A stretch of 64,000 bases of DNA from Mobula birostris. Taxonomy: Eukaryota. The position numbers and the translations under genes were made by a program. Position 1 is the first letter of the stretch, and each line of letters begins with the position of its first letter. The notes under the pieces are model-generated. The model ran no database searches. It was not told the DNA's origin and saw only the letters and a program-made list of their open reading frames with translations. The DNA lies in assembly GCF_030028105.1 (NCBI RefSeq), contig NC_092377.1, positions 103,965,177 through 104,029,176 on the forward strand. The letters run 5' to 3'. Below, in pieces: positions 4,826-64,000 of this stretch.

Positions 4826-4840
4826 ATCTGTAAAATTCTC

Positions 4841-5005
4841 GAGGAACTCAGTGAGTCAGGGAGTAACAATGGATAAGAATAAACTGTCGACGTTTTGGGC
4901 CAAGACATCTCCCCATGCCGAGAGAGTTTATTCTTCTGCTTAGATACTGCCTGCGCAGCTAAGTCCTGCTGCACTTGGTGTATTGTTCCATATTTCCAGT
5001 ATCTG
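4841..5005. repeat. Degenerate Penelope-derived inverted-repeat element
   Basis: gaggaactcag...gtcgacgttttgggccaagac and ...ttccagtatctg resemble the two arms of the 5595-5820 element. Confidence 0.55.
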
Positions 5006-5594: not shown

Positions 5595-5820
5595 AACAAG
5601 AGAACATCTGCAGATGCTGGGAATCCAAGCAGCACACAGAAAATGCTGGGGGAATTCAGCAACCCAGGCAGCATCAATGGTAAAGAGTACAGTCGACGTT
5701 TCGGGCCGAGACCTTTCATCAGCACTCTTCATGATGAAAGGTTTCGGCCTGAAAAGTCGACCATACTCTTCCAAAGATACAGCCTGGCTGCTGAGTTCTT
5801 CTAGCATTTTGTGTGTGCTT
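5595..5820. mobile_element. Penelope-derived palindromic (MITE-like) element with back-to-back hammerhead motifs
   Basis: Left arm 5630-5726 is the inverted complement of right arm 5727-5820; arms match the 3' end of the Penelope copy at 48310-48400. Confidence 0.8.
5690..5726 (-). ncRNA. Minimal type I hammerhead ribozyme motif (core intact, one stem I mismatch)
   Basis: Minus strand reads AGTG-CTGATGA-AAGGTCTCGGCCC-GAAA-C-GTC-GACTG. Confidence 0.6.
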
Positions 5821-6569: not shown

Positions 6570-6806
6570 ATGACTTCAGCTGCATTGATTGTGCAAGGGA
6601 TTCTCTCTGTCTGACTTCGGACTTGATACATTGCCAGAGAATTCAAAGAGAACTGCGGGAAAGAATTCACACACTCATCCCACCTGCAGAGATATCAGTG
6701 AGTTCACACTGGGGAGAGGCCATTCACCTGCTCAGACTGTGGGGAGGGATTCACTCAGTATGACCTTGTGATATTGTAGTCACATCAATGAGTTCACACT
6801 TGGGAG
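6570..6806 (+). pseudogene. Two to three decayed C2H2 finger repeats upstream of the ZNF ATG
   Basis: Finger-like [35 protein letters not shown]...*SHQ*VHTWE, with stops, runs into the CDS start. Confidence 0.75.
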
Positions 6807-8243
6807 ATGCTGCACACCTGTTCAGATTGCGGGAAGGGATTCTCTCAGTCATCTCAACTGAAGGTACATCAGCAAGTTCACACAGGAGAGAAGCCATTCT
6901 CCTGCTCAGACTGTGGGAAGGGATTCACTCAGTCTGCTGACCTGCTGGCACATCGGTCAGTTCACACAGGGGAGAGACCATTCACCTGCTTAAACTGTGG
7001 GAAGGGATTCACTCACTCATCCAATCTCAAGAGACATCAGCGAATTCACACAGGGGAGAGGCCGTTCACCTGCTCTGTGTGTGGGAAGGGATTCACTCAG
7101 TCATCCAGCCTACAGACACACCAGCGAGTTCACACTGGGGAGAGGCCATTCACCTGCTCAGACTGTGGGAAGGGATTCTCTCAGTCATCTGACCTGAAGG
7201 TACATCAGCGAGTTCACACTGGTGAGAGGCCATTCACCTGTTCTGTGTGTGGGAAGGGATTTACTCGTTCGTCCCACCTACAGATACATCAGTCAGGTCA
7301 CACTAGGGAGAGGCCGTTCACCTGCTCATACTGTGGGAAAGGATTCTCTCAGTCATCTGACCTGAAGGTACATCAGCGAGTTCACACTGGGGAGAAGCCA
7401 TTCACTTGTTCAGACTGTGGGAAGAGATTCAGTCGGTCATCCCACCTGCAGATACACCAGTCTGTTCACACTGGGGAGAGGCCATTCACCTGTTCAGACT
7501 GTGGGAAGGGATTCACTCAATCATCACACCTATTGGCACACCAGTCAGTTCACACTGGGGAGAGGCCATTCACCTGCTCAGACTGTGGGAAGGGATTCAG
7601 TCGGTTATCCCACCTGCAGATACACCAGTCAGTTCACACTGGGGAGAGGCCGTTCATCTGCTTAGACTGTGGGAAGGGATTCACTCAGTCATCACACCTG
7701 CTGGCACACCAGTCAGTTCACACTGGGGAGAGGCCATTCACCTGCTCAGTCTGTGGGAAGGGATTCACTCAATCATCACATCTACTGGCGCACCAGTCAG
7801 TTCACACTGGAGAGAGGCCATTCACTTGCCCAAACTGTGGGAAGGGATTCACTCGGTCATCCAGTCTCAAGACACACCAGTCAATCCACACTGGGGAGAG
7901 GCCTTTTACCTGTTCTGTGTGTGGGAAAGGATTTGCTCGGTCATCTCAACTGGACACACATCAGCGAGTTCACTCGAGGGAGAGGCCATTCAGCTGCTTA
8001 GACTGTGGGAAGGGATTCGCTCAGTCATCTGACCTGAAGGTACATCAGCGAGTTCACACTGGGGAGAGGCCATTCATGTGTTCAGACTGTGGGAAGGAAT
8101 TCGCTCAGTCATCTCAACTGAAGGTCCATCAGCGAGTTCACACTGGGGAGAAGCCATTCACCTGCTTCGATTGCGGGAAGGGATTCACTCAGTTATCTCA
8201 ACTGAAGGTACATCAGCGAGTTCACACTGGCGATAAAGTTTAG
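6807..8243 (+). CDS. Tandem C2H2 zinc-finger protein, 17 fingers, no KRAB/SCAN/BTB domain
   Basis: 478 aa = 17 x 28-aa CxxCGKGF...HxxxH repeats with TGERPF linkers. Confidence 0.93.
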
Positions 8244-22275: not shown

Positions 22276-22344
22276 GCCAAATTTGGGACTGGGTAAATTG
22301 ATTGGGTTAAAATTCCTGAAAGAAAGAAAGGGCAAACAGCAGAA

Positions 22345-23628
22345 ATGGAGATTGAGGAATTTCTAAAGGCGCCAACCTTGGAGGCATTAGAGGATGCCAG
22401 GAAGTCAGAATTGGCGACTGTTGCCAAACGATTGAATCTGTTTAAGGGGAAGCTGACAATGAGGAGAGTGGAGATGCACAGAGCTATCATTGAGCATTAT
22501 GTATCTAAAGGTGTGTTTCCCCAATCGGAGCTGGAGGTGGTATCTATGAGCAAATCTGGTGGAGAGGCGGTGCAGCTGCAGATGGAAAAATTGAGACTCG
22601 AGCACGAGTTCCGGGTAAGGCAGCTAAAACAAGAAGAGAAGCAGTTAGAACGACAAGAGAGAGAGAAGCAGAAGGAAAGGGAATTTGAGCTGGAGAAGTT
22701 AAGGATGACGCTAGCGCAGGGCCCCATGCCGAACCAAGGTGGAGGGTTCAGGGTGACCCAGGAGGTTAGGCTGGTTCCTCCATTTGAGGAGGCCGATGTT
22801 GATCGGTACTTTCTAAATTTTGAAAAAGTCACTGCAAGTCAGGACTGGCCGAGGGATAAGTGGGCTGTTTTGCTTCAGAGCGTACTTAAAGGGAAAGCTC
22901 AGCAAGCTTACTCGGCATTGTCCGCAGAAGTTGCCCAGAGGTATGATGTGGTGAAGGAGGCGATACTCAGGATTTATGAGTTGGTCCCGGAGGCATACCG
23001 GCAGAGGTTCCGGAATGTGAGGAAGCAGTGGGGCTGCACGTATTTAGAGTTTGCCCGTGGGATGCAGATGTATTGTGAGCGTTGGTGTGCCTCGAAAGGG
23101 GTCAATGGGGATTATGACAGACTGCTACAGCGAATACTGATTGAGTAGTTTAAAGGTTGTGTCCCTGAAGGTATGAGGCCCTATCTAGATGAGAAAGAGG
23201 CAGAAATTTTAGCCGCAACTGCTAAGTTAGCGGATGAGTACGCGTTAACACACAAAGCGAAGTTTACCCCAAGTAAAAGCTACCACAAGGGTAGTCGAGA
23301 GGGCGGAGAGAGTCTGCCGGAAAAGCCAGAAAGTAAGCCGGGGACTAGTGAGAAGGATAAGGAAGACCGGCAGCAGCTTGGTAGGAAGTCTCCTGGGGTC
23401 GTATGTTATAATTGTGGGAAAGCCGGTCACTTTGCGTCCAGGTGCTTTGCCCCAAAGAAGGAGATGAGGAAAGGAAAAACGATGACTCTGACTGGCTGTA
23501 CTGAGCTGGCAAACAAACCGCTAGGGGAGAAGAGGTCTGATAGAGTTCAGGAAGGGCGCGAGAAGTTTATTTCGGCCGGATTGGTGTCGGTGAAGGAGGG
23601 GTCAAACCCAGTTCCAGTACAGATCTGA
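22345..23628 (+). pseudogene. Gmr1-like gag (SCAN-related capsid + CCHC knuckle)
   Basis: VPPFEEADVDRYFLNFEK, ELVPEAYRQRFR, LIE*F, CYNCGKAGHFASRC; in-frame stop at 23146-48. Confidence 0.85.
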
Positions 23629-25370
23629 AGAGACACTGGAGCTTGTCAGTCACTGATCTTAAGGAGTGTTTTAGACTTTAGTTCAGAGACTGAGACTGGA
23701 GAGGTCAGTGTGATAAAAGGCATTGGGAAAGGGACCGAAGCAGTACCTTTGCACCAGATGCACCTAAAAAAGCGACTTGGTCTCTGGACTGGTCACGATA
23801 GGGGTGAGGCCCGAACTACCAATGAAAGACGTGGAGGTCTTACTCGGTAATGACCTCGCCGGCGGAGAGGTGTACCCAGCAGTAAGACTAACAAGCAAAC
23901 CTGCCAGGATTGAAGCCCCGCCCACAGACACAGGTTTATCCCATTTGTGCAGTGACTCGGCGCATGTCCAGAAAGGCTGCCGAAATGAATGTAGATTTAG
24001 CTGAGACGTTTTTACCAGCCTTGTATCAAGAGGGGTTAGAAAGTGAGAAGAAGGAGCATAGTGGAGCGGAAGGAAGTGAGGGAGTTGAGGTCGACTTATC
24101 ATTAGCAAAGAAGGAATTTATACAGGCACAGGAACGAGACGAGGAGCTAATGGTTTTGACGGAGACAGCTCTCTCCGAAGCAGAATTAAAAAGGGAGCCA
24201 GTGGGCTATTATGTGAAGGAGGGAGTACTAATAAGGAAATGGAGACCAAGTACTGTGCCCGCAGATGAGGTATGGGGGGTGGTGCACCAGGTGGTAGTGC
24301 GGAAAATTTATAGGTGTGTGATTTTTAACCTGGCCCACAAGATACCCCTGGGTGGACATTTTGGAGTGAGGAAAACAGTCGATAGAATCATGAAAGAGTT
24401 TTACTGGCCGCACATGAGGAAGGATGCTATTGACTATTGTAGATGTGAGCTAACACAGTTAGAGTCTATTGATATGTTAACAGCTTGCCATGATAAGCGA
24501 GCAGACCTAGTCGGTGTTATCACGAAAACTAATGAGGCTAGGGTGCCACCTGATAAGGGGAAAACCCATTTTGAAAAGATAAGTATGGTGCTGACCAGAT
24601 GGGAGAACTCTATTGTTTTGGCCAACTTTGCTGATAAAGTCTCTCCCTTCACCCCCGAACAGAGCGAGCTGCTGAGAAAGCTAATTAACTGGCATGCAGA
24701 CGTATGTCAGGATGTCCCAAGGCAATGCAAAGAGCCGGGTCATGGCGGTGTTGTCACATCCCGTCAGCCTAGTAAGCAACATCCCTATAGGATGATTAAT
24801 TCAGTGACAAAAGGGCTAAAGAACGCAGAAGCGTATATTGACGATTTAGTGGTCTGGAGTGATGTGGGAGGAGCACATTATGGCAGTAGAGGAGCTGTTT
24901 AAGCGGCTGTCAGAAGCCAACCTGACAGTGAACCTCGCAAAAAGTGAATTCGGCCACGCGAAGGTCACTTATATGGGATTTATAGTAGGACAGGGGCAGC
25001 TGGCACTGATGCAGGCTAAAGAGCGGGCTATCTCTGAAGTCCCCACCCCGACAGACAAGAGAGCCCTGAAAAAGTTCTTAGTGATGGTGGGGTACTATCG
25101 GAAGTTTTGCAAAAACTTTGCGGATATTACCCTCCCTCTTACTAAGCTCTTGCCAAAGAATGCGAAGTTTGTGTGGGACGACCTTTGTTATATTTGTCCG
25201 GCATGGAAACCACTGATAATTTACACTGACCACAACCCATTTTGGCCACTATGAAGGATAAAAACAAAAGGTTGCTAAGTTGGAGCCTGGTCTTACAGGA
25301 ATTTGATATTAAAATAAAACATATGAAAGGAATGGACAATGTGATTGCTGACTGTCTGTCAAGGTGCTGA
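23629..25370 (+). pseudogene. pol remnants: protease, integrase zinc-binding region, RT, RNase H
   Basis: RDTGACQS; H..GGHFGVRKT...FYWP..C; AYIDD; YYRKF; YTDHNP; NVIADCLSR; large internal deletions. Confidence 0.8.
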
Positions 25371-31965: not shown

Positions 31966-32131
31966 TGTTTTGTTAATATACAAACAAAAGCTTTTTCAAT
32001 GTATCTGACAATAATAAACTATTTATCAAACTCTCCCAGTATGATTCAGGCCAGTAGCCTTGACCTAACCCTGTCTTGCAGGCGCCCCTCACCGCTCCCC
32101 CCCCCCCCCCCCACAAACACACAAACATACA

Positions 32132-32380
32132 CTTCAGGCTATGTATCTTGTCAGATTATACATGGACCCTTCAGATTGTGTATCCTGTCGGATTATACAT
32201 GGACTCTTCAGACTCTGTGTCCTGTTAGATTATACATGGACTCTTCAGACTGCGTATCCTGTGGGATTACACACTGACCCTTCAGACTGTGTATTCTATC
32301 AGATTATACATGGAATCTTCAGACTCTGTGTCTTGTCAGATTATACACAGACTCTTCAGACTGTGTATCCTGTCAGATTA
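32132..32380. repeat. 37-bp minisatellite, ~6.7 copies
   Basis: Unit cttcagactgtgtatcctgtcagattatacatggact starting at 32132, 32169, 32206, 32243, 32280, 32317, 32354. Confidence 0.9.
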
Positions 32381-32605
32381 CAGATTTTATGGTTCATTCA
32401 GGGCTTCTAATTGTTGGAAGTCTCTGAATGATTTTGTGGGAACACATTCATCGACAACTATTTTAATAAAGTCTGGAACAACTCTGGTATATTCATTCGG
32501 ATTCACAGATGAGTACTTGAACATGACCCAGTCCACCCATTCAGAACAATTCTGTAGATGCCCTTCTGCTTCCAGCGACCACCTCTTCATTGTCCTGATC
32601 TCTGT

Positions 32606-34677: not shown

Positions 34678-35697
34678 CGGAGGTCTACCTGAACTAGTCC
34701 TAATTAACTGCACTTTGCCCTTATCCCTCTGAATCTTTCCTATGCATAGACCTGTCCAGATGACTTTTAAATTTAAACCCGCCTCTGCCACTTCCTCTGG
34801 CAACTTATTCCACAGAGCCACCACCTTCTTTGTGAAAAAAATTGATCCTCTCTCCTTAAGCCTATGCATTCTAGTTGTCTGCTCCTCCGCCCTGGCAAGG
34901 TGACTGTTACCATTCAGCTCTCTGGTGCTCCCTATGATTTGATATACTGTACCTCCATAAGGTCACCCCTTAGTCTCCTGTGCTCCAAGGGAAAAACCCC
35001 TATCTCAGGGGTGGCAAACGTCTGGCATGCATGCTCCAGGTGGTTTGTATAATAGTTTCTTGGAACGCTGTACCCAGTAGCTCTCCTCGGTTCTTTAAAT
35101 CCCACTATAATTTATATACATGGTGACTTTCAAATGAATCAGCAAATGTTTTTTTTTCACAACCTGAGAGCAGTGAGATGTTTTCACAGCTAGATAGTTG
35201 TGAAAACCTCGCAGACCTGGTTGCACATCAATATTCAGACAGTAGATGGTTACAATAACAAAACTATTTAGAAGGTATTTTAGAAAAAATACTTCCACCA
35301 CTTCCAAAACAATCCTACCACTAAACATATCTTTACCTCATCCCTGCCCCATTCCACAGGGATTTCTCCCTCTGCAGTTCCTTTGTCCATTCATACCACT
35401 CCGCTAAAGTTTGCTGATGACACCACTGTCGGAGGCTAAATCAAAGATGGTGATGAATCAGCATATAGGAAGGAGATTGAAAATCCGGCTGAGTGGCGTC
35501 ATAACAACAACCTCTCACTCAATGTCAGCAAGACCAAAGAATTGACTATAGAATTCAGAAGGAAACCAGATGTCTCTGAGCCAGTCCTCTTTGGAAGATA
35601 TGCGGTGAAGAGGGTTAGTATCTTTAAAATGTTAACTTGTAGGTTGAGTCAATATTAAGGTAGGAAAATGCAATCTCTAGGAACTTTGAATCTCTAA

Positions 35698-35755
35698 CAA
35701 CTTTGATGTGTGTTGCTTGAATTTCCAGCATCTGCAGAATTCCTCATGTTTGTGA
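35698..35755 (+). repeat. Short Penelope terminal fragment
   Basis: Near reverse complement of 47481-47540. Confidence 0.6.
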
Positions 35756-38566: not shown

Positions 38567-39150
<584 letters not shown>

Positions 39151-39232: not shown

Positions 39233-41859
39233 TAGGGGTGGCCACTTCCAAATTTCCAAAAAGGAGGACATTGCATACGTGGTCATAGGTTACCAAATAT
39301 ATACAGTGCATTTAAAAAACATTTATTTCTTATAAAAAATTTAAACCATACTGCAAAAACAAATGCAAACAGATAACTTTAGTTATTTTATTAAATAAAA
39401 ATTCTAACATGATACTTTTTTTGCCTATATAAATCCAGCAAAACTTAGCTATTTCATGATTAATCAGTGATTTTCTGCCAGATCCCTTTTTCCTATTCAA
39501 TGATTCATCATTCTGCATATTACATACAGTATAAATAAAGAACTGAAAGAAATGAATATTCATTTTTACTCCTGCTGAAGCAGATATGCTAACCAAATTA
39601 ACTTACTTCACAAACTAAAGGAAGTAGCCTACTTAGGCCTACCCTGGACTGCCAGGTATGGATGTCTATTTTTTGTATTTTTGCCCTTTACTTGCTATCT
39701 CCAGGAGTTCTCTGTTGGCCAGGAGTTTTTTGTACATGCCTGGGCACTCTTCTGAGAAGTTATATTTGGAGCTCTGCTTTGATTGAGTCCACTTGCAAAC
39801 GTTTTCTCTCGTTTCTCCAAGCTGAGGTCATCATTGAAAAAACTCATTCTGTGTGAGCATTGCTGCATGGAAAAGAGAAGATATAAACACTCACCTTCTT
39901 CAGGTTTGTAAAGGAGACCTCAGATTTACTGAACAGCTTGAGATAACGTTCTTCACTGTGGCTATCTACCATCTCAGGAGTATTGATAATTGCCTCCACA
40001 ATCCCATACTCTTCATATAATTCATCCATATTAATATCTTGAAGGTTACAGGCCTTCACTGCATCACAGAATTCTCCAAAAGGTATTGCATGTGTTAGGC
40101 TCAATTTTGACACTTTGTTATGAAAGCTGTTTTCAGAGAAGTCATACCTGTCACTTAAGTACTTTATGACTCCTTCATAGAAAACAATGAAGTCTACTTC
40201 ACATTTCTTAGACACATCAAGGATAAGCTGGCTAAGCTTGGTGTTCACTGAAAAGCCAAAAAAAAAACAGTCCTTTACTCTTCTCTCAAGTTTGCATTTC
40301 AGTTCAGCCATTAGCTTAAGTACTGAAATTATGCTGAATGACTTGGCTTCTAGTGTTTCAATAGTGTCTGAGAACAATTTAAGAGCATGACTGAGGAAGA
40401 AACAGATCTCTGACAATTCACAGGCATTTCCTTCATCTTCAAAGCACTTCCACAGTACCTTGAGGCAATCCTCCTCACCTAGACTCTGAAAATAACTTCG
40501 TAGGACTTCCCAGCTCTTAAATATTCTGTTAATAGATGGCAAAGGAGAAAGCAATCTAGTTACAACATGCTGTAACAGATTACAATTATCAACATCCACG
40601 AATCCACAGAATTCCTTTAACTGTGCTGTTCTTTTAGCTGAGATGCTGAAATGGTTATACACTTTGAGCACAATATTTTCAACATCAATTTCCAGTTTTC
40701 CTGTAGCAAATCTTGTTGCATTGTATAAAATATGGACCAGACAATTTGCAGCAATAATGTTCTTTTGAGCCATTTTCAGTTTTTGATAAACACTGTTGTG
40801 TTTTCCATGGTTTACACTTGCATTGTGAGCAGTGTATGCAGACACTTTATTCAGATCCAGACCTGACGTCTCTGGTTTAACCAGTGGCTGATTTGTTATG
40901 TCCCCCTGATGATTCATTGGTACTGTATCGCTGTAAAACTCAAGTAACACATGTTGCACTCCCTTCTCAGGGTGAAAGTATCTCAGAAGTATTGGGAAAC
41001 ACTTTGTTGCACCTTTGTTTGAAGTATCATTTGCTACTGAAAAAGGCAAGCCATGTTCTTTGATATACTCCACATGGTTTTGTACAGAATACAGTGCTAG
41101 AATATTTTCACAATGCTTTTGCTTTAGTTTTACCACATGTTACACCTTTCACTATCAATGAGTCACTGTACAGGTATATTTCTTTGTCAACTTTTACTCC
41201 ACAATCAACACTTCTGTATGACTGATGATGCTTCACAGCATGATAAACTTCACACAGTTCTGCAGCCAAGACTGTGTCATCCTGAGTTGATCGAGCTGGG
41301 GAGAAAAATGATAACAGTGATGATGTACCAGCAGTACGAGCGTTAACTTTATGTTTATCTGTGGTAGCATGTCGTTCAACTGCACTTCTTCCCTTACTGT
41401 CAATCTCCACATCACAACGGCATAGTGTACAAAAAACATGAAGGACATCTTTTCTGCTTTTAGCAATAAATCCAAATTCTTTGGCCCATTCATGGTTAAA
41501 TATAGTCCTTTTTTTCAGCCTTTCTTTAGGGGCTTGAAACAAGAACAAAAAAGTCAACCACTCTCCACTGCAGCCTTGGGCGGACTGACCCCTCAGACGT
41601 GTTGACGTCACGTGACGCGTACGCTGCGGCTCATCAGCAGTGTTGACAACAGCAACTACATCTAATAAAAATATGTTAACGCTTGTTACAGCTTTCAGTT
41701 CCCACTGTTTTAGTATATCTGAGGTAATTTATATAAGTCTTTTAGTCAGACCCAAAAAAGGAGGACAAGTGAACGTCCGGCTCGAGGTGGCGCCGGACGG
41801 AGGACAGAGTGTTCAAAAGCCGGACTGCCTGGCCTAAAGCTGGACGTCTAGCCTCCCTA
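39233..41859 (-). mobile_element. hAT DNA transposon (Blackjack/Tip100-like TAGGG ends), near full length
   Basis: Ends TAGGGGTGGCCA / (rc) TAGGGAGGCTAG; imperfect 8-bp TSD TACAGCCT/CACAGTCT; subterminal ccaaaaaggaggaca at both ends; transposase inside. Confidence 0.88.
39640..41540 (-). pseudogene. hAT transposase, frameshifted
   Basis: Zn finger FCTLC...H...KH (ORF 41108-41611); core DTSN, CLVH, TRLLS; PCSNAHTE/VFS dimerisation motif broken at ~39844. Confidence 0.85.
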
Positions 41860-46235: not shown

Positions 46236-47581
46236 TTCGAAACAGTGTTTGGGAACTGGAGCTGCAGGTCTATGACCTCTGGCTTGTTCAGGAAATTGAA
46301 GCAGTGATAGATATGAGCTACAGGAGACAGGAAAATGGGTGACTCTCAGGAGAGGGAAGGGGGAATGTCAGATAGTAGAGAGTACACCTGTGGTCATCCG
46401 ACTCAAGAATTAGTACTCCATTTTGAGTACTTTTGTTGGGGACGGCCTACCTGGGGGAAAGAACAGTAGCCGTGCTTCTGGCACCAAGTGTGGCCCTGTG
46501 GCTCAGAAGGGTAGGGAACTGAAGAGGATGGCAGCAGTAATAGGGGACTCTATAGTCGGGGACACATAGGCTGTTCTGTGGACACTAAGTGGAAATGCAG
46601 AGGATAGTTTTCCTCCCAGGAGCCAGTGTTCAAGTTGTTTCTGGATGTGTCCACAGTATGCTGAAAAAGGAGGGTGAGCAGCCAGAAGTCGTGGTACATT
46701 CCGATAGAAAAAGGGAGAAACTCCTCAATAGAAGGATATAGGGAGTTAGAAAAGAAACTGAGAAGCAGGACATCAAGGGTAGAAATCTCAGGATTGCTGC
46801 CTGTGCCATGCGACACTGAGTATAGGAATAGAATAAGATGGCAGATAAATGCATAGCTGTTGAATTAGAACAAGGTGAATGAACTCATGGCACCGATTAG
46901 AGACTGGTTGGTATAACATTCTGGGCATCACTGAGTCATGGTTGAAAGAAAGCATGAACCTCAAAGGATATACTGATGGAATTACATCTTTAGAAAGAGG
47001 TGACAGAGTCAGAGAATGCTGAATTTTGTGGGTGGAGTTAAGAAGTTGAAAGGGTAAAGAAACCATGATGGGAATTATATAGTAACTAATAGCGGGGTTA
47101 AGATTGCAAAGTGAGCTGGAAAAGGCATGTAATAAGATTATCGACACAATTGTAATGGGGGAGTTCAGTATGCAAGGGGATTGGGAAATTCAGGTTGATG
47201 TTGGGTCCCAAGAGAGGGAATTTGTTGAATGCCAGTGAGATGGCTTTTTAGAGCAGCTTGTGCCTGAGCCTCCTTGGGGAAGAGCTATCTCAGACTGGGT
47301 GTTATTTAATAGCCTAGATCTAGGAGGGTAGACTAGCCAATAATATAAAGCAGGATACCAGAATTTTTTTTCAGTTATATAGAGAGTAAAAGGAAAGTTA
47401 GAGTTGATATTAGACCAATGGAAAATGATGCTGGTGAGGTAGTAATGGGGGACAAAGAAATGGCAGATGAATGTAATAAACGCAAACAGCAGGAATTCTG
47501 CAGATGCTGGAAATTCAAGTAACACACATCAAAGTTGCTGGTGAACGCAGCAGGCCAGGCAGCATCTCTAGGAAGAGGTCC

Positions 47582-48028
47582 TCCCCATCCCTCCCCACTG
47601 ATCTCCCTCCTGGCACTTATCCGTGTAAGCGGAACAAGTGCTACACGTGCCCTTACACTTCCTCCCTTACCACCATTCAGGGCCCCAAACAGTCCTTCCA
47701 GGTGAGGCGACACTTCACCTGTGAGTTAGCTGGGGTGATACACTGTGTCTGGTGCTCCTGATGTGGCCTTTTATATATTGGCGAGACCCGACGCAGACTG
47801 GGAGACCGCTTTGCTGAACATCTACGCTCTGTCCGCCAGGGAAAGCAGGATCTCCCAGTGGCCACACATTTTAATTCCACATCCCATTCCCATTCTGACA
47901 TGTCTATCCACGGCCTCCTCTACTGTAAAGATGAAGCCACACTCAGGTTGGAGGAACAACACCTTATATTCCGTCTGGGTAGCCCCCAACCTGATGGCAT
48001 GAACATTGACTTCTCTAACTTCCGCTAA
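47582..48028 (+). pseudogene. Penelope GIY-YIG endonuclease fragment
   Basis: PCKRNKCYTC...FTC...VIHCVWCS*CGLLYIGETRRRLGDRFAEH...VATHFN...GMNIDF; one TGA at 47759-61. Confidence 0.88.
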
Positions 48029-48314
48029 TGCCCCACCTCCCCCTCGCACCTCATCTGTTACTTATTTTTATACACACATTCTTTATCTCACTCTCCTTTT
48101 TGTCCCTCTGACTATACCCCTTGCCCATCCTCTGGGTTCCTCCCCCCCTTGTCTTTCTTCCCGGACCTCCTGTCCCATGATCCTCTCGTATCCGTTTTGC
48201 CTATCACCTGTCCAGCTCTTGGCTCCATCCCTCCCCCTCCTGTCTTCTCCTATCATCTTGGATCTCCCCCTCCCCCTCCCACTTTCAAATCCCTTACTCA
48301 CTCTTCCTTCAGTT

Positions 48315-48350
48315 AGTCCTGATGAAGGGTCTCGGCCTGAAACGTCGACT
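48315..48350 (+). ncRNA. Minimal type I hammerhead ribozyme (Penelope pLTR)
   Basis: AGTC-CTGATGA-AGGGTCTCGGCCT-GAAA-C-GTC^GACT: full core, stem I AGTC/GACT, palindromic ACGT stem III. Confidence 0.8.
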
Positions 48351-48856
48351 GTACCTCTTCCTACAGATAATGCCTGGCCTGCTGCGTTCACCAGCAACGT
48401 AGATGAATATAATTGGTACTTTACATCTGTCTTGACTGTGGAAGACGCTAGCAGTGTGCCATAGTTCTGTAAGTGTCAGGGAGCAGGAGTGAGTGCCAGT
48501 GCTATTACAAAGGAAAAAGTGCAAGGCAATCTCAAAGGTGGAAGGCTGGATAAGTCACCTGGCGCTTTTCCCCTTGACTCCTGTTCTTTGGTGAATGAGG
48601 CCGTTCTCTGATCGGGATTTCACATTTACTAATCAGAATAGGCGATTTACTGCGCCACTCTGCATTAAGTCAAGTCGAGACGACGGCGGAAAAAAATCTT
48701 AATTTTCGATAAAATGAAACTATCCGGGAATGGGAGAGAGTCCGCTCGTTGCAGCGATAAATGTAGATTATTTTAGGGGAGGAAAAGCGATTTAGACCAA
48801 GAGTCGAAGACGCTTGTCTCCGACAGACACTTTGAAAGCAAATCCCCCAGCCGGTG

Positions 48857-48902
48857 CTCAGCCCTTCCACAGACAATCTGAGTGGCTCTGAAAAGAGCCT
48901 TT
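48857..48902 (-). terminator. Histone stem-loop + HDE (H2A copy 2)
   Basis: Stem-loop 48884-48899. Confidence 0.93.
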
Positions 48903-48930
48903 GGGTTTTTTAATTGTCGCTTTTATCTCT

Positions 48931-49518
<588 letters not shown>

Positions 49519-53600: not shown

Positions 53601-56600
53601 AGATTCACTGGTCTATAATTTCCTGGGCTATCTCTACTCCCTTTGTTGAATAAGGAAACAACATCCGCAACCCTCCAACCCTCCGGAACCTCTCCTTCAC
53701 TGATGCTGCAAAGATCATCACCAGAGCTCAGCAATCTCCTCCCTCACTTCCAATAGTAATCGGTGGTACATCCCATCCGGTCCCAGTGATTTAACCAACT
53801 TGATGCTTTCCAAAAGCTCCAGCACATCCTTTTCCTTAATGTCTATATGCTCAAGCTTTTCAGTCCGCTGTAAGTCATCCCTACAATTGCCAAGATCCTT
53901 TTCCGTAGTGAATACTGAAGCAAAGTCATTAAGTACCTCTGCAATTTCCTCTGGTTCCATACACACGCTTCCACTGTCACAGTCGGTTGGTCCTATTCTC
54001 TCAAATCTTATCCTCTTGCTCTTCACATACTTGTAGAATGCCTTGGGGTTTTCCTTAATCGTGTGTGCCAAGGCCTTCTCATGGCCTCTTCTGGTTCTCC
54101 TGATTTCATTCTTAAGCTCCTTCCTGCTCACCTTATAATCTTCTAGATTCCTCTCATTACCTTGTTTTTTGAACCTTTCATAAGCTTTTCTTTTGTCTTG
54201 ACTAGATTTACAACAGCCTTTGTACACCACAGATCTTGTACCCTACCATCCTTTCAATGTCTCGTTGCAACGTACCTCTTCAGAACTCCATGCAAATATC
54301 CTCTGAACATTTGCCACATTTCTTCCGTACATTTCCCTGAGAACATCTGTTTCCAATTTATGCTTCCAAGTTCCTGCCTGATGGCCTGATATTTCCCCTT
54401 ACTCCAACTAAAAGTTTCCCTAACTTGTCTGTTCCTATCCCTCTCCAATGCTGTGGTAAAGTGATAGAATTGTGATCGCTATCTCCAAAATTCTCTCCCA
54501 CTGAGAGACCGGACACCTGACCAGGTTCATTTTCCAAAACCTGATCAAGTACAGCCTCTCCTCTTGTAGGCTTATCTACATATTGTGTCAAGAAACCTTT
54601 CTGAACACACCTAACAAACTCCACCCTGTCTAAACCCCTCACTCTAGGGAGACGCAAATCAATATTTGGGAAATTAAAATCTCCCACCACAACAACCCTG
54701 TTATTATTACTCCTTTCCAGAATCTGTCTCCATATCTGCTCCTCGATGTCCCTGTTACTATTGGGTGGTCTAAAAAAAAAACAGACAGTAGAGTTACTGA
54801 CCCCTTCCTATTCCTAACCTCCACCCACAGAGACTCCATAGACAACACCCCCATGACTTCCCCCTTTTCTGCAGCCATGACACTATCTCTGATCAACAGT
54901 GCATGCCCCCAGCTCTTTTGCCTCCCCCCGTCTGTTCTGAAACATCTAAAGCCTGGCACTTGAAGTAACCATTTCTGCCCCTGAGCCATCCAAGTCTCTG
55001 TAATGGCCTTCGAAACAGTGTTTGGGAACTGGAGCTGCAGGTCTATGACCTCCGGCTTGTTCAGGAAATTGAAGCAGTGATAGATGTGAGCTACAGGAGA
55101 CAGGAAAATGGGTGACTCTCAGGAGAGGGAAGGGGGAATGTCAGATAGTAGAGAGTACACCTGTGGTCATCCGACTCAAGAATTAGTACTCCATTTTGAG
55201 TACTTTTGTTGGGGACGGCCTACCTGGGGGAAAGAACAGTAGCCGTGCCTCTGGCACCAAGTGTGGCTCTGTGGCTCAGAAGGGTAGGGAACTGACGAGG
55301 ATGGCAGCAGTAATAGGGGACTCTAGAGTCGGGGACACATAGGCTGTTCTGTGGATGCTAAGTGGAAATGCAGAGGACAGTTTTCCTCCCAGGAGCCAGT
55401 GTTCAAGTTGTTTCTGGATGTGTCCACAGTATGCTGAAAAAGGAGGGTGAGCAGCCAGAAGTCGTGGTACATTCCGATAGAAAAAGGGAGAAACTCCTCA
55501 ATAGAAGGATATAGGGAGTTAGAAAAGAAACTGAGAAGCAGGACATCAAGGGTAGAAATCTCAGGATTGCTGCCTGTGCCATGCGACACTGAGTATAGGA
55601 ATAGATAAGATGGCAGATAAATGCATAGCTGTCGAATTAGAACAAGGTGAATGAACTCATGGCACCGATTAGAGACTGGTTGGTATAACATTCTGGGCAT
55701 CACTGAGTCATGGTTGAAAGAAGGCATGAACCTCAAATGATATACTGATGGAATTACATCTTTAGAAAGAGGTGACAGAGTCAGAGAATGCTGAATTTTG
55801 TGGGTGGAGTAAGAAGTTGAAAGGGTAAAGAAACCATGATGGGAATTATATAGTAACTAATAGCGGAGTTAAGATAGCAAAGTGAGCTGGAAAAGGAAGG
55901 TAATAAGAGTATCGACACAATTGTAATGGGGGAGTTCAGTATGCAAGGGGATTGGGAAATTCAGGTTGATGTCGGGTCCCAAGAGAGGGAATTTGTTGAA
56001 TGCCAGTGAGATGGCTTTTTAGAGCAGCTTGTGCCTGAGCCTCCTTGGGGAAGAGCTATCTCAGACTGGGTGTTATTTAATAGCCTAGATCTATGAGGGT
56101 AGACTAGCCAATAATATAAAGCAGGATACCAGAATTTTTTTTCAGTTATACAGAGAGTAAAAGGAAAGTTAGAGTTGATATTAGACCAATGGAAAATGAT
56201 GCTGGTGAGGTTGTAATGGGGGACAAAGAAACGGCAGATGAATGTAATAGGTCTTGACTGTGGAAGACGCTAGCAGTGTGCCATAGTTCTGTAAGTGTCA
56301 GGGAGCAGGAGTGAGTGCCAGTGCTATTACAAAGGAGAAAGTGCAAGGCAATCTCAAAGGTGGAAGGCTGGATAAGTCACCTGGCGCTTTTCCCCTTGAC
56401 TCCTGTTCTTTGGTGAATGAGGCCGTTCTCTGATCGGGATTTCACATTTACTAATCAGAATAGGCGATTTGCTGCGCCACTCTGCATTAAGTCAAGTCGA
56501 GACGACGGCGGAAAAAAGATCTTAATTTTCGATAAAATGAAACTATCCGGGAATGAGAGAGAGTCCGCTCGTTGCAGCGACAAATGTAGATTATTTTAGG

Positions 56601-56690
56601 GGAGGAAAAGCGATTTAGATCAAGAGTCGAAGTCGCTTGTCTACGACAGACACTCTGAACGGAAATCCCCCGGACTCACCCCAGCCGGTG

Positions 56691-56736
56691 CTCAGCCCTT
56701 CCACAGACAATCTGAGTGGCTCTGAAAAGAGCCTTT
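56691..56736 (-). terminator. Histone stem-loop + HDE (H2A copy 3)
   Basis: Stem-loop 56718-56733. Confidence 0.93.
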
Positions 56737-56763: not shown

Positions 56764-57351
<588 letters not shown>

Positions 57352-61175: not shown

Positions 61176-64000
61176 GTTTGGGTTGCAGTTAAAGATAAGG
61201 GGCTGTGATGTTCAATTTAGGAATTTCGGCTCAGCCTTTCAGGTTGGTGGCATTGGGAGAGAGTTCTCAAGAAAGCTGGGTGGACTGGTTGATACTTTAA
61301 TGTTGGTCTGTCCGGACCCATTTGAGAACGATGAAGCTTCCATTATTGTGGGAACAAATACTCCCCCAGTGAGACGGCTAGTGGGAGACTGCAAGGAGAA
61401 AAATGGAAAGAATTTCTGGAAAACCTCATCCATTCACCCAGCGTTCAGAGCCATATCAGAGGATGCACAAGTTCCTCCTAATCTGGATGATGAGCACAAA
61501 CGAGGAACTGTGTAGTATCTTTAGCCCAAGCCCGTAATGTTACATCCTGGGGAAGTAGCTGGCGTGACAGGACACCCCAAGTTCCCTGGAATGTCTGATG
61601 CGGAGGCAGTCCTGGTGGATACTCTGGAGGATCGCGAGGAAGAGTTACGCTTACTTTCTGGGGTGCTGTGAGAGCTGAACCTCTGAAACGAGTTTGAGGT
61701 GGGTTGCTTCCAGAGTACCCGCCACTCCATCCGAGTGATCAAGGACACCCTTTTCAGAGAAAAGTCTCAATGGTTAGCACCAGCGCAGGTGGAAGATGTT
61801 CGGCAGCATCTGCTGAAATAGAAGGAAGCTGGAATTATCACTGAATCAAGGAGTCCCTATGAGTCATCCATAGGGAGGAAGAAATGAAAGGGACGAATGT
61901 GTGTTGACTAACGGACACTGAATCAATGTACGGTCCCTGACCAATGCACTGTTCCACAGATGAAGGATTCACTGGCCTGCCTGAATGGTGCAAAATGGTT
62001 CAGTGTCCTGGACCTAAGGAATGGGTATTATCAGATACCCATGAGTGAAGCTGACAAAGAGAAGACTGCATTCATATGTCCACTTGGATTCTTTCAATTT
62101 GAAAGAATGCCCCAGGACATACCAGGATCCCTGGCAATTTTTCAACATGTCATGGAGTAGACTGTTGGGGCATGAATTTACTTGAGGTACTGGTGTACTT
62201 GGATGATCTCATAGCGTTCGGGTCCACCCTGGAAGAGCACGAGAGAGGGCTACTGAAGGTGCTTGGCCCCCTGAAACCTGAAAGGTTAAAACTGTCACTG
62301 GACAAGAGCAGCTCTGCAAGACGTCACTCAACCACATTGGGTACATAGTCTCACGGGATGGGGTAATCAAGGATTCGTCAAAAGTAGAGGTGGTGACCAC
62401 ATGACCAAGGCCCAAGAAAGTGAGCACTCTACACTCATTCCTTGGGTTCTGTGGGTACTACTGGAGATTCATGAAGGACTACTCCAAATTAAACCACCCT
62501 TTGAATCAGCTTCTGTGTGGGTACCCACCTTGAAGAAGAGAAGAAGGAGAATAAAAGGGGAAGAAGATAATGTTCCTCTTAGCCATGAGGGATTAGGCAG
62601 TGTTCTATATCAGGACCAAGGTAAAGGGTTAACAGCAGTTTCTTTCATCAGTCAGAATCTGTCACCCTCTGAACATAACTACCCTATGTACAAATTGGAG
62701 TTTCTGGCATTGAAATGGGTTGTGGTGGACAAGTTAAATGACTATTTTGATGGTGTCAAGTTTGAGGTGAGGACTGACAACAATCCACTCACTTATTTTT
62801 TGACCTCAGCAAATTGGATGCTGCAGGTCACCATTGATTGGCAGCGTTATCAGCTTATAAGTTCAGCCTGTAACAGAGGCCGGGGAGCCAGAACATTGAT
62901 TCGGATGTGTTGTCTTGGCATTCACGAGATGCTGAAAATCGACAGAGAGTGGGAGAGTCTTCCTGCCTCTGTTGTTCAAGCAATCTTCCGGTTTTCCGCC
63001 ACGGAGAAACCAGCAGCAAGGCTGTGGTAGGATAGAGCTGTGGATCATTTGGAAGCTTCCGGTTGCTCCATTCCACAAGCTTATTGCAATTTGACTGTCC
63101 GAGCACAAAGCAGTTGCCTGCCTTGAGCCCAGTGGAATTGGCAGACACCTAGTGACCTGAACCCTTCTATAGGTGATATTTGGACATGTGTTGCAGAAGG
63201 TGACATGGCCCAAGTTGAAAAGATGAAACACACCCTATACCCCTACTGATGAGAGAATGGAATAAACTGGAGTTGAGGAAACAGTTTTTATACAGGGTCA
63301 CATCTCCTCTAGACAGGCCTCGGTGTTCGTTGTTGGTTTTGCCTGAGAAGCATCGGAGAATTGTGTTGAAGTCACTTCATGATGATTCAGGTCACTTGAG
63401 GTTTGACAAGATCTATGGATTGGTTTGAGATCCGTTCCATTGGCCCCGAATGAATCCTGAGGTTGAGGGTACTGTAAGTTGTGTATTCAATGTATTTGGG
63501 GGAAGACACTACCGACAAGATTGCTCCATTATCCCACTTACTGAGTCCAGGGCCACTTGATTCAGTGTGAATGGATTTGCTCTCCATCAAGCCTGATTCC
63601 AGAAACACTGCCAATGTCTTAGTCAGTACTGATCACTACACCAGATATGCTCCAGCTTTCCCACAAAGGGCCAGGGGATGTCCACAGTAGCCAAAGTGTT
63701 ATGAGAAAAGTATTTTGTTCATTATGACCTGCCAAGATGGATACACAGTGATCAGGGAAGGAATTTTGATAGTAGGCAGATACATCAGTTACTGGGCATG
63801 CTTGGAGTGGTGAAGTCGAGAACCACACCCTGTCATCCTCAGGGTGATCCCAGTTCAACTGGACATTGCTAGGCATGCTGGGAACCCTGGATATCAGCAA
63901 GAAGAACAAATGGAATCAGCATATTGGGCATTAGGTCCACTGCTACAACTGTACACAGAATGAAGCTACTGGATACTCACCATACCACTTGGAGATCAGG
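61176..64000 (+). mobile_element. Degenerate Gypsy pol (PR-RT-RH-IN), runs off the window
   Basis: WFSVLDLRNGYYQI, KTAFICPLGFFQFERMP, YLDD ~62195, LEFLALKW, TDNNPL, SDQGRNF. Confidence 0.9.

Follow-up and report, generated by a model that had tools for sequence, protein, structure and literature searches.

A minimal type I hammerhead motif in a dead Penelope-like element of Mobula birostris, and insertion junctions of its family as a record of RNA ends

Introduction

Minimal hammerhead ribozymes (min-HHRs) in the pseudo-LTRs (pLTRs) of metazoan Penelope-like elements (PLEs) were described by Cervera and de la Pena in 2014 (PMC4209133). The available parts of that paper report low activity even for dimers, and a consensus in which G10.1-C11.1 exceeds 80%, with G·U in several of the published rows. 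For a lizard PLE, the accessible text of PMC11167929 describes cleavage that is assisted by the protein and is dispensable for insertion in vitro, and it ties an optional tail to two internal priming sites. As far as the available portions of the two sources go, the role of PLE ribozymes is called still open in PMC8557442, and one cartilaginous fish was sampled for retrozymes in bioRxiv 10.64898/2026.07.22.740005. No literature joining ribozyme, Penelope and cartilaginous fish was found in a search that had subscription journals, Repbase entries and bioRxiv supplements outside its view, and no literature title or abstract start was found that reports a start site at helix I.

The PLE hammerhead is an already published kind, and the motif analysed here is itself ordinary for PLEs. 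The family that carries it numbers tens of thousands of recent copies that are 94-98% identical, and their insertion junctions can be read as a record of RNA ends. Read in this way, the junctions suggest that the element RNA begins at the ribozyme and mostly serves as a template without having been cut. This narrows the models and gives exact positions for RNA-end mapping.

The motif and its detection

The window is the whole stretch of DNA analysed, 64,000 nucleotides of Mobula birostris, and its features are listed in Table 1. Base-by-base reading placed the motif exactly where the first-pass annotation had it, and its sequence marks it as a minimal hammerhead of type I in a PLE pLTR. This identification, which apart from the pLTR was also made in that annotation, agrees with the published consensus, as the motif has the core CUGANGA ... 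GAAA ... NUH, the unpaired base between 9 and 10.1, and the loopless palindrome at 15.2-16.2. The palindrome ACGT is made up of A15.1-C-G-U16.1, with C48343-G48344 as the palindromic 15.2-16.2 and without a loop III. A stem of this kind would need a partner to form helix III, as had been proposed under the heading of dimer dependence. In the published register, stem II consists of G·U, G-C, G-C and U·G around a CUCG loop. The pair 10.1-11.1 is thus G·U, not G-C, in the window motif, and U11.1 was found in 106 of 118 family copies; a sister family has G-C. The distance from the GIY-YIG stop codon, earlier put at ~290 bp, is 287 nt (stop at 48026-48028).

The bare core is found three times in the 64-kb window, against 2.47 matches expected, which is chance level. 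Genome-wide (4.0 Gb), a search for the core with a 13-nt spacer, using the exact pattern CTGANGAA-N12-GAAACGTH, recovered 84,193 matches and the reversed pattern, used as the control, 46. The abundance suspected from the window is therefore real. The further suggestion that the family supplies many unannotated ribozymes holds for the sequences, which remain candidates, and the general case for PLEs was already made by Cervera and de la Pena in 2014. No Rfam hammerhead model matched at the motif, even with E up to 10 on 171 nt; PLE minimal motifs of such kind escape Rfam.

Table 1. Hammerhead motif, the PLE insertion that carries it and other PLE remnants in the window
Feature	Position	Strand	Basis or remark
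Weak PLE remnant	4833-4918		E 0.012
Older head-to-head PLE remnant, hammerhead in each arm	5595..5798 (or to 5830)	both	
PLE remnant pieces	35291-35392, 35698-35751		
Likely target-site duplication, left copy	47465..47477	+	12/13 identical to 48401-48413; in old LINE fragment
Inverted copy of family 3' end, including long 'tail'	47478..47579	-	Precedes forward piece
3' end of PLE ORF, CX4CxxC linker and GIY-YIG endonuclease, 5'-truncated	47578..48028	+	Reading-frame analysis
Pyrimidine-rich 3' untranslated part of pLTR	48029..48314	+	Poorly conserved between families
TTAGTCC around A48315, favoured 5' end of family, likely transcription start	48313..48319	+	Junction counts
Minimal type I hammerhead motif	48315..48350	+	Sequence reading; Fig. 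S3 consensus of PMC4209133 except U for C at 11.1
Helix I, 5' strand AGTC	48315-48318	+	Base-by-base reading
Core CTGATGA	48319-48325	+	Base-by-base reading
Unpaired extra A	48326	+	Usual unpaired base between 9 and 10.1
Stem II region	48327-48338	+	Base-by-base reading
GAAA	48339-48342	+	Base-by-base reading
C, then GTC triplet	48343, 48344-48346	+	Predicted cut after 48346
Helix I, 3' strand GACT	48347-48350	+	Base-by-base reading
3' end of forward copy, ~15 nt short of family's short end	48351..48398	+	
Likely target-site duplication, right copy	48401..48413	+	

The copy in the window

As read from its sequence, the copy in the window is a dead, 5'-truncated PLE, and it is likely inert. The forward piece spans 47578-48398 and comprises the end of the ORF, the pyrimidine-rich 3' region, the motif and a partial 3' end. 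An in-frame stop codon (47759-47761) lies inside the endonuclease frame. The ORF fragment is 93% identical to the RT-EN protein of the family, and its Pfam match to GIY-YIG (E 0.012) is below the cut-off. The inverted copy starts 6 nt past the cut site and therefore does not include the hammerhead. No microsatellite target was seen at the insertion. The PLE insertion is missing from a paralogous H2A repeat unit (56072-56734), where a small deletion blurs the site.

The first-pass annotation had inferred that this copy could self-cleave when two motifs pair. This found no support, as the copy is 5'-truncated and has the stop in its endonuclease frame, no same-strand intact partner motif is present within the 64-kb window, and the hammerhead helices have a predicted pairing probability of ~0 in their context. 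Its count of four pieces of the family was roughly right, in that the window holds this insertion and three further PLE remnants. The remnant at 5595 is a near-perfect 200-nt hairpin in which the core is intact in the - arm (5695-5722) and decayed in the + arm; the family has many short foldback insertions of this sort (loci L184-L186).

Other features of the window include three histone H2A genes on the - strand (38567-39091, 48931-49320 and 56764-57351), in tandem units of ~8-10 kb. No other histone frames were seen in the ORFs scanned. The middle gene ends in a histone stem-loop at 48859-48904. Two adjacent frames of 431 and 206 aa (39844-41728, - strand) have no Pfam match, and together resemble a disrupted hAT-type DNA transposase. 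The + strand includes an exon with a C2H2 zinc-finger array of ~17 fingers (6792-8243) and LTR-type retroelement pieces (22297-25254 and 62290-63030) with weak SCAN, zinc knuckle, integrase zinc-binding, RT and RNase H matches. A tandem array of seven copies with a 37-nt period lies at 32084-32422.

The family and its twin motifs

The family unit is ~3.5-3.7 kb long and has a single ORF for an RT with a C-terminal GIY-YIG domain. Pfam matches of the family protein are weak and below the cut-off; it has 107 homologues, most of them with RVT_1. One locus retains an unbroken RT-EN frame of 1,015 aa; 170 nt lie between the start of helix I and the first in-frame ATG. The linker before GIY-YIG, CKRNKCYTC, is a CX4CxxC form of the CX2-5CxxC that characterises Neptune and Nematis, and because of this linker the family was typed as Neptune/Nematis. 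The hallmarks of EN+ PLEs are present, namely partial tandems, here of very variable length, an inverted 5' copy and an optional tail of 30-40 bp. Two 3' ends are found in the family, ~70 and ~108 nt after the cut site. Some copies have a ~210-nt duplication in a Pro/Ser-rich region of the ORF (L032:5458-5900), and this likely accounts for units of 3.5 versus 3.7 kb. A shared 5' start at 47578 in many loci was an artefact of the truncation of the query itself.

In all 30 loci examined at the ORF start, the 3' tail of the element directly precedes the ORF, and the motif is included in 26. Twenty of these loci, picked for having the upstream motif, were extended, and every one has a second motif on the same strand, at 3.5-3.75 kb in 19 and at 1.9 kb in one; both cores are intact in 16. 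The twin motifs of full-length elements are the arrangement needed for a dimer. At two further loci (L171:1450-1560 and L025:480-545), the motif is repeated head-to-tail with a spacing of 36-40 nt and could dimerise in cis.

Junctions at helix I and at the cut site

Junctions were counted as copies with two non-consensus bases before a given base, and sampled loci were sorted by hand-set rules. Genome-wide, 783 copies carry two purines that replace the TT before helix I. Each of the 30 loci sampled from these was a true junction (16 clean truncations, 11 inversions without microhomology and 3 with), and 27 belong to the PLE family and three to other families. The estimate is ~3,100 copies with their 5' end at the first base of helix I; clean truncations make up ~1,670 of these (CI 1,075-2,244). 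This peak was counted genome-wide at one offset only (-32 from the cut). The clean truncations are ~20 to 65 times as many as near the cut, where they numbered 25-81 at the seven offsets from -8 to +7. In a biased sample of 322 copies, starts cluster at -32 to -26 with few just upstream, and the upstream edge of the peak is sharp (20, 13 and 13 versus 3, 1, 4 and 3).

As this pile-up greatly exceeds the starts at the cut site, the element RNA likely starts at the ribozyme. The TTAGTCC found there presumably fits the initiator YYANWYY. A similar peak would also arise if the reverse transcriptase stalled where helix I ends. A splice acceptor before helix I, in the form of a pyrimidine tract and AG, was considered and found no support, as no upstream exon was shared among the 30 loci at -32; however, unspliced templates would show no such exon, so an intron may still precede helix I.

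At the cut site, 55,074 read-through copies were found genome-wide versus ~740 estimated junctions, and in ~99% of family copies the sequence continues across an intact cut site. Raw matches with foreign bases just before the cut numbered 529, versus 127-317 at six control offsets. After the sorting of 280 loci (70 at the cut and 30-40 per control offset) and correction of the counts for visibility, there were ~739 junctions at the cut and 113-353 at the controls, an excess of 3.2-fold (2.7-3.9) over the control mean; the counts at offsets -4 and -8 are somewhat too low, owing to the larger number of CpG sites in their patterns. When microhomology cases were removed, 349 remained at the cut versus 94-314 at the controls, a value that does not rise above that of the +7 control. 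Of clean truncations that run into flanking DNA, there were 81 at the cut and 25-56 at the controls, or 2.0-fold (0.8-4.4). The ~3-fold excess is largely microhomology with the motif's own repeats, and a cleavage footprint at the cut site in the genome is possible.

Conservation, covariation and folding

Identity to 10 copies of other families is 81-94% for the motif and 35-75% for the flanking segments. Variation is mainly at position 7, loop II and 11.1. All core bases are retained across the sequences compared, as are the palindrome and the base left unpaired after A9, and helix I has only three firm pairs across families. Compensatory covariation in the stems, one of the two grounds on which the earlier proposal was to be judged, was not seen: in 19 sequences with 89% identity, several of them decayed, 0 of 9 pairs had changes in both partners. 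Covariation therefore lends no support, and the set is too uniform to refute the fold. An apparently compensatory helix I pair in locus L164 was a junction artefact of a head-to-head insertion.

The folding z-score is -0.05, and the double-hammerhead fold of the dimer is predicted at -11.5 kcal/mol versus -26.7 kcal/mol for its best fold, 15 kcal/mol apart in a model that ignores tertiary contacts. These folding models disfavour the active hammerhead form. Such predictions would agree with the low dimer activity that has been published and with the need of the lizard element for its protein. Dimer cleavage is reportedly also the subject of a study by Lunse et al. (RNA Biol).

Proposed mechanism and alternatives

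We consider it probable that the motif is a minimal pLTR hammerhead lying in a dead, solitary and likely inert copy and that, in active members of the family, it makes up the first 36 nt of the RNA and cuts weakly as a dimer. Transcription would start at the equivalent of A48315, 170 nt before the ATG, and the twin motif 3.5-3.7 kb downstream would act as the dimer partner, with weak cutting. Reverse transcription would start ~70 or ~108 nt after the 3' motif, which would account for both 3' ends. If the 3' motif were cut, the body of the element would lose its priming region and only inserts of 70-108 nt would result, so that productive templates would be those that are uncut or re-ligated. 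Cleavage may be slow or may depend on the protein of the element, as published for other PLEs. The element RNA is likely copied mostly uncut; re-ligated circles would likewise give read-through copies. More tentatively, the hammerhead might be a protein-gated switch in the first 36 nt of the transcript, whose pairing with its twin removes the capped leader or severs the priming tail. Both ends would then be recorded in the 84,000 copies of the genome, most strongly at the start of helix I, where the peak is large, and less so at the scissile bond, with ~1% of copies.

An unlikely alternative is efficient dimer cleavage by the twin motifs of a full-length transcript, followed by ligation of the unit-length RNA to a circle that serves as the template; read-through copies and partial tandems would arise as copying continues round this circle. 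Unit spacing of the twin motifs and partial tandems of very variable length would be expected, the cut site does have the most junctions of the seven offsets tested (3.2-fold over the control mean), and the model is put forward in the available text of PMC4209133. However, a circle has no end at helix I, where ~3,100 copies start, and once microhomology cases are left out, the excess at the cut (349 versus 94-314) no longer rises above the +7 control; for clean truncations it is 2.0-fold (0.8-4.4). Ribozyme mutants also still insert in vitro, according to the accessible part of PMC11167929.

It appears rather improbable that the sequence is kept mainly as a promoter or protein-binding site at the start of the RNA and that catalysis is vestigial in the family. 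The near-invariant sequence without covariation, U at 11.1 in 106/118 family copies, just three firm helix I pairs across families and the folding models that disfavour the hammerhead are consistent with this, as are the Naiad PLEs, which thrive without the motif (PMC8557442, as far as available). Against it, position 7 and loop II vary but the core bases, the palindrome and the base left unpaired after A9 do not, and the parts available of PMC4209133 and PMC11167929 include several families with G·U at 10.1-11.1 and a related lizard motif that cleaves with protein, respectively. We give very little credence to activity of the window copy itself, as a ribozyme that would pair in trans with other copies and cleave a host transcript. 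Although its core is intact and the genome offers tens of thousands of potential partner motifs, a same-strand partner is absent from the window, the neighbouring H2A gene is on the opposite strand and ends in its histone stem-loop ~460 nt away, and the paralogous H2A unit is without the insertion.

Comparison with known systems

The comparisons below are with the available portions of each source. The non-LTR retrozymes (bioRxiv 10.64898/2026.07.22.740005) also have a type I hammerhead, derived from PLE pLTRs. However, they are short non-coding tandem repeats, whereas the window element has a single motif behind an endonuclease frame and does not consist of tandem non-coding units with a motif each. 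With the Neptune/Nematis EN+ PLEs (Craig et al. 2021, PMC8557442), the family shares an RT with C-terminal GIY-YIG, the CX2-5CxxC linker, partial tandems, an inverted 5'-truncated copy and a tail on one end. It differs in that no microsatellite target was seen at the window insertion, and its linker places it with Neptune or Nematis.

PAc, the Poseidon element of Anolis carolinensis (Frangieh et al. 2024, PMC11167929), likewise has two 3' ends ~38 nt apart downstream of the motif, and unprocessed RNA is apparently the main template. However, the PAc ORF starts inside the motif, whereas 170 nt separate helix I from the first in-frame ATG here, and the linker of the ray family is the CX4CxxC form found in Neptune/Nematis. 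Cleavage was assayed for PAc and is predicted here from sequence.

The closest likeness is to the min-HHRs of PMC4209133, with which the motif shares the core CUGANGA-H, a G-initiated helix II, GAAA, a two-base palindrome without loop III, and NUH, together with a helix I of 3-5 bp, one motif per pLTR and mostly solitary copies in truncated elements. The window subfamily differs in having U rather than C at 11.1, as do several published rows, and a helix II of 4 bp. The species in Fig. S3 of that paper include no cartilaginous fish, and the published maxima are ~4,000 and ~9,000, compared with 84,193 exact cores in this genome.
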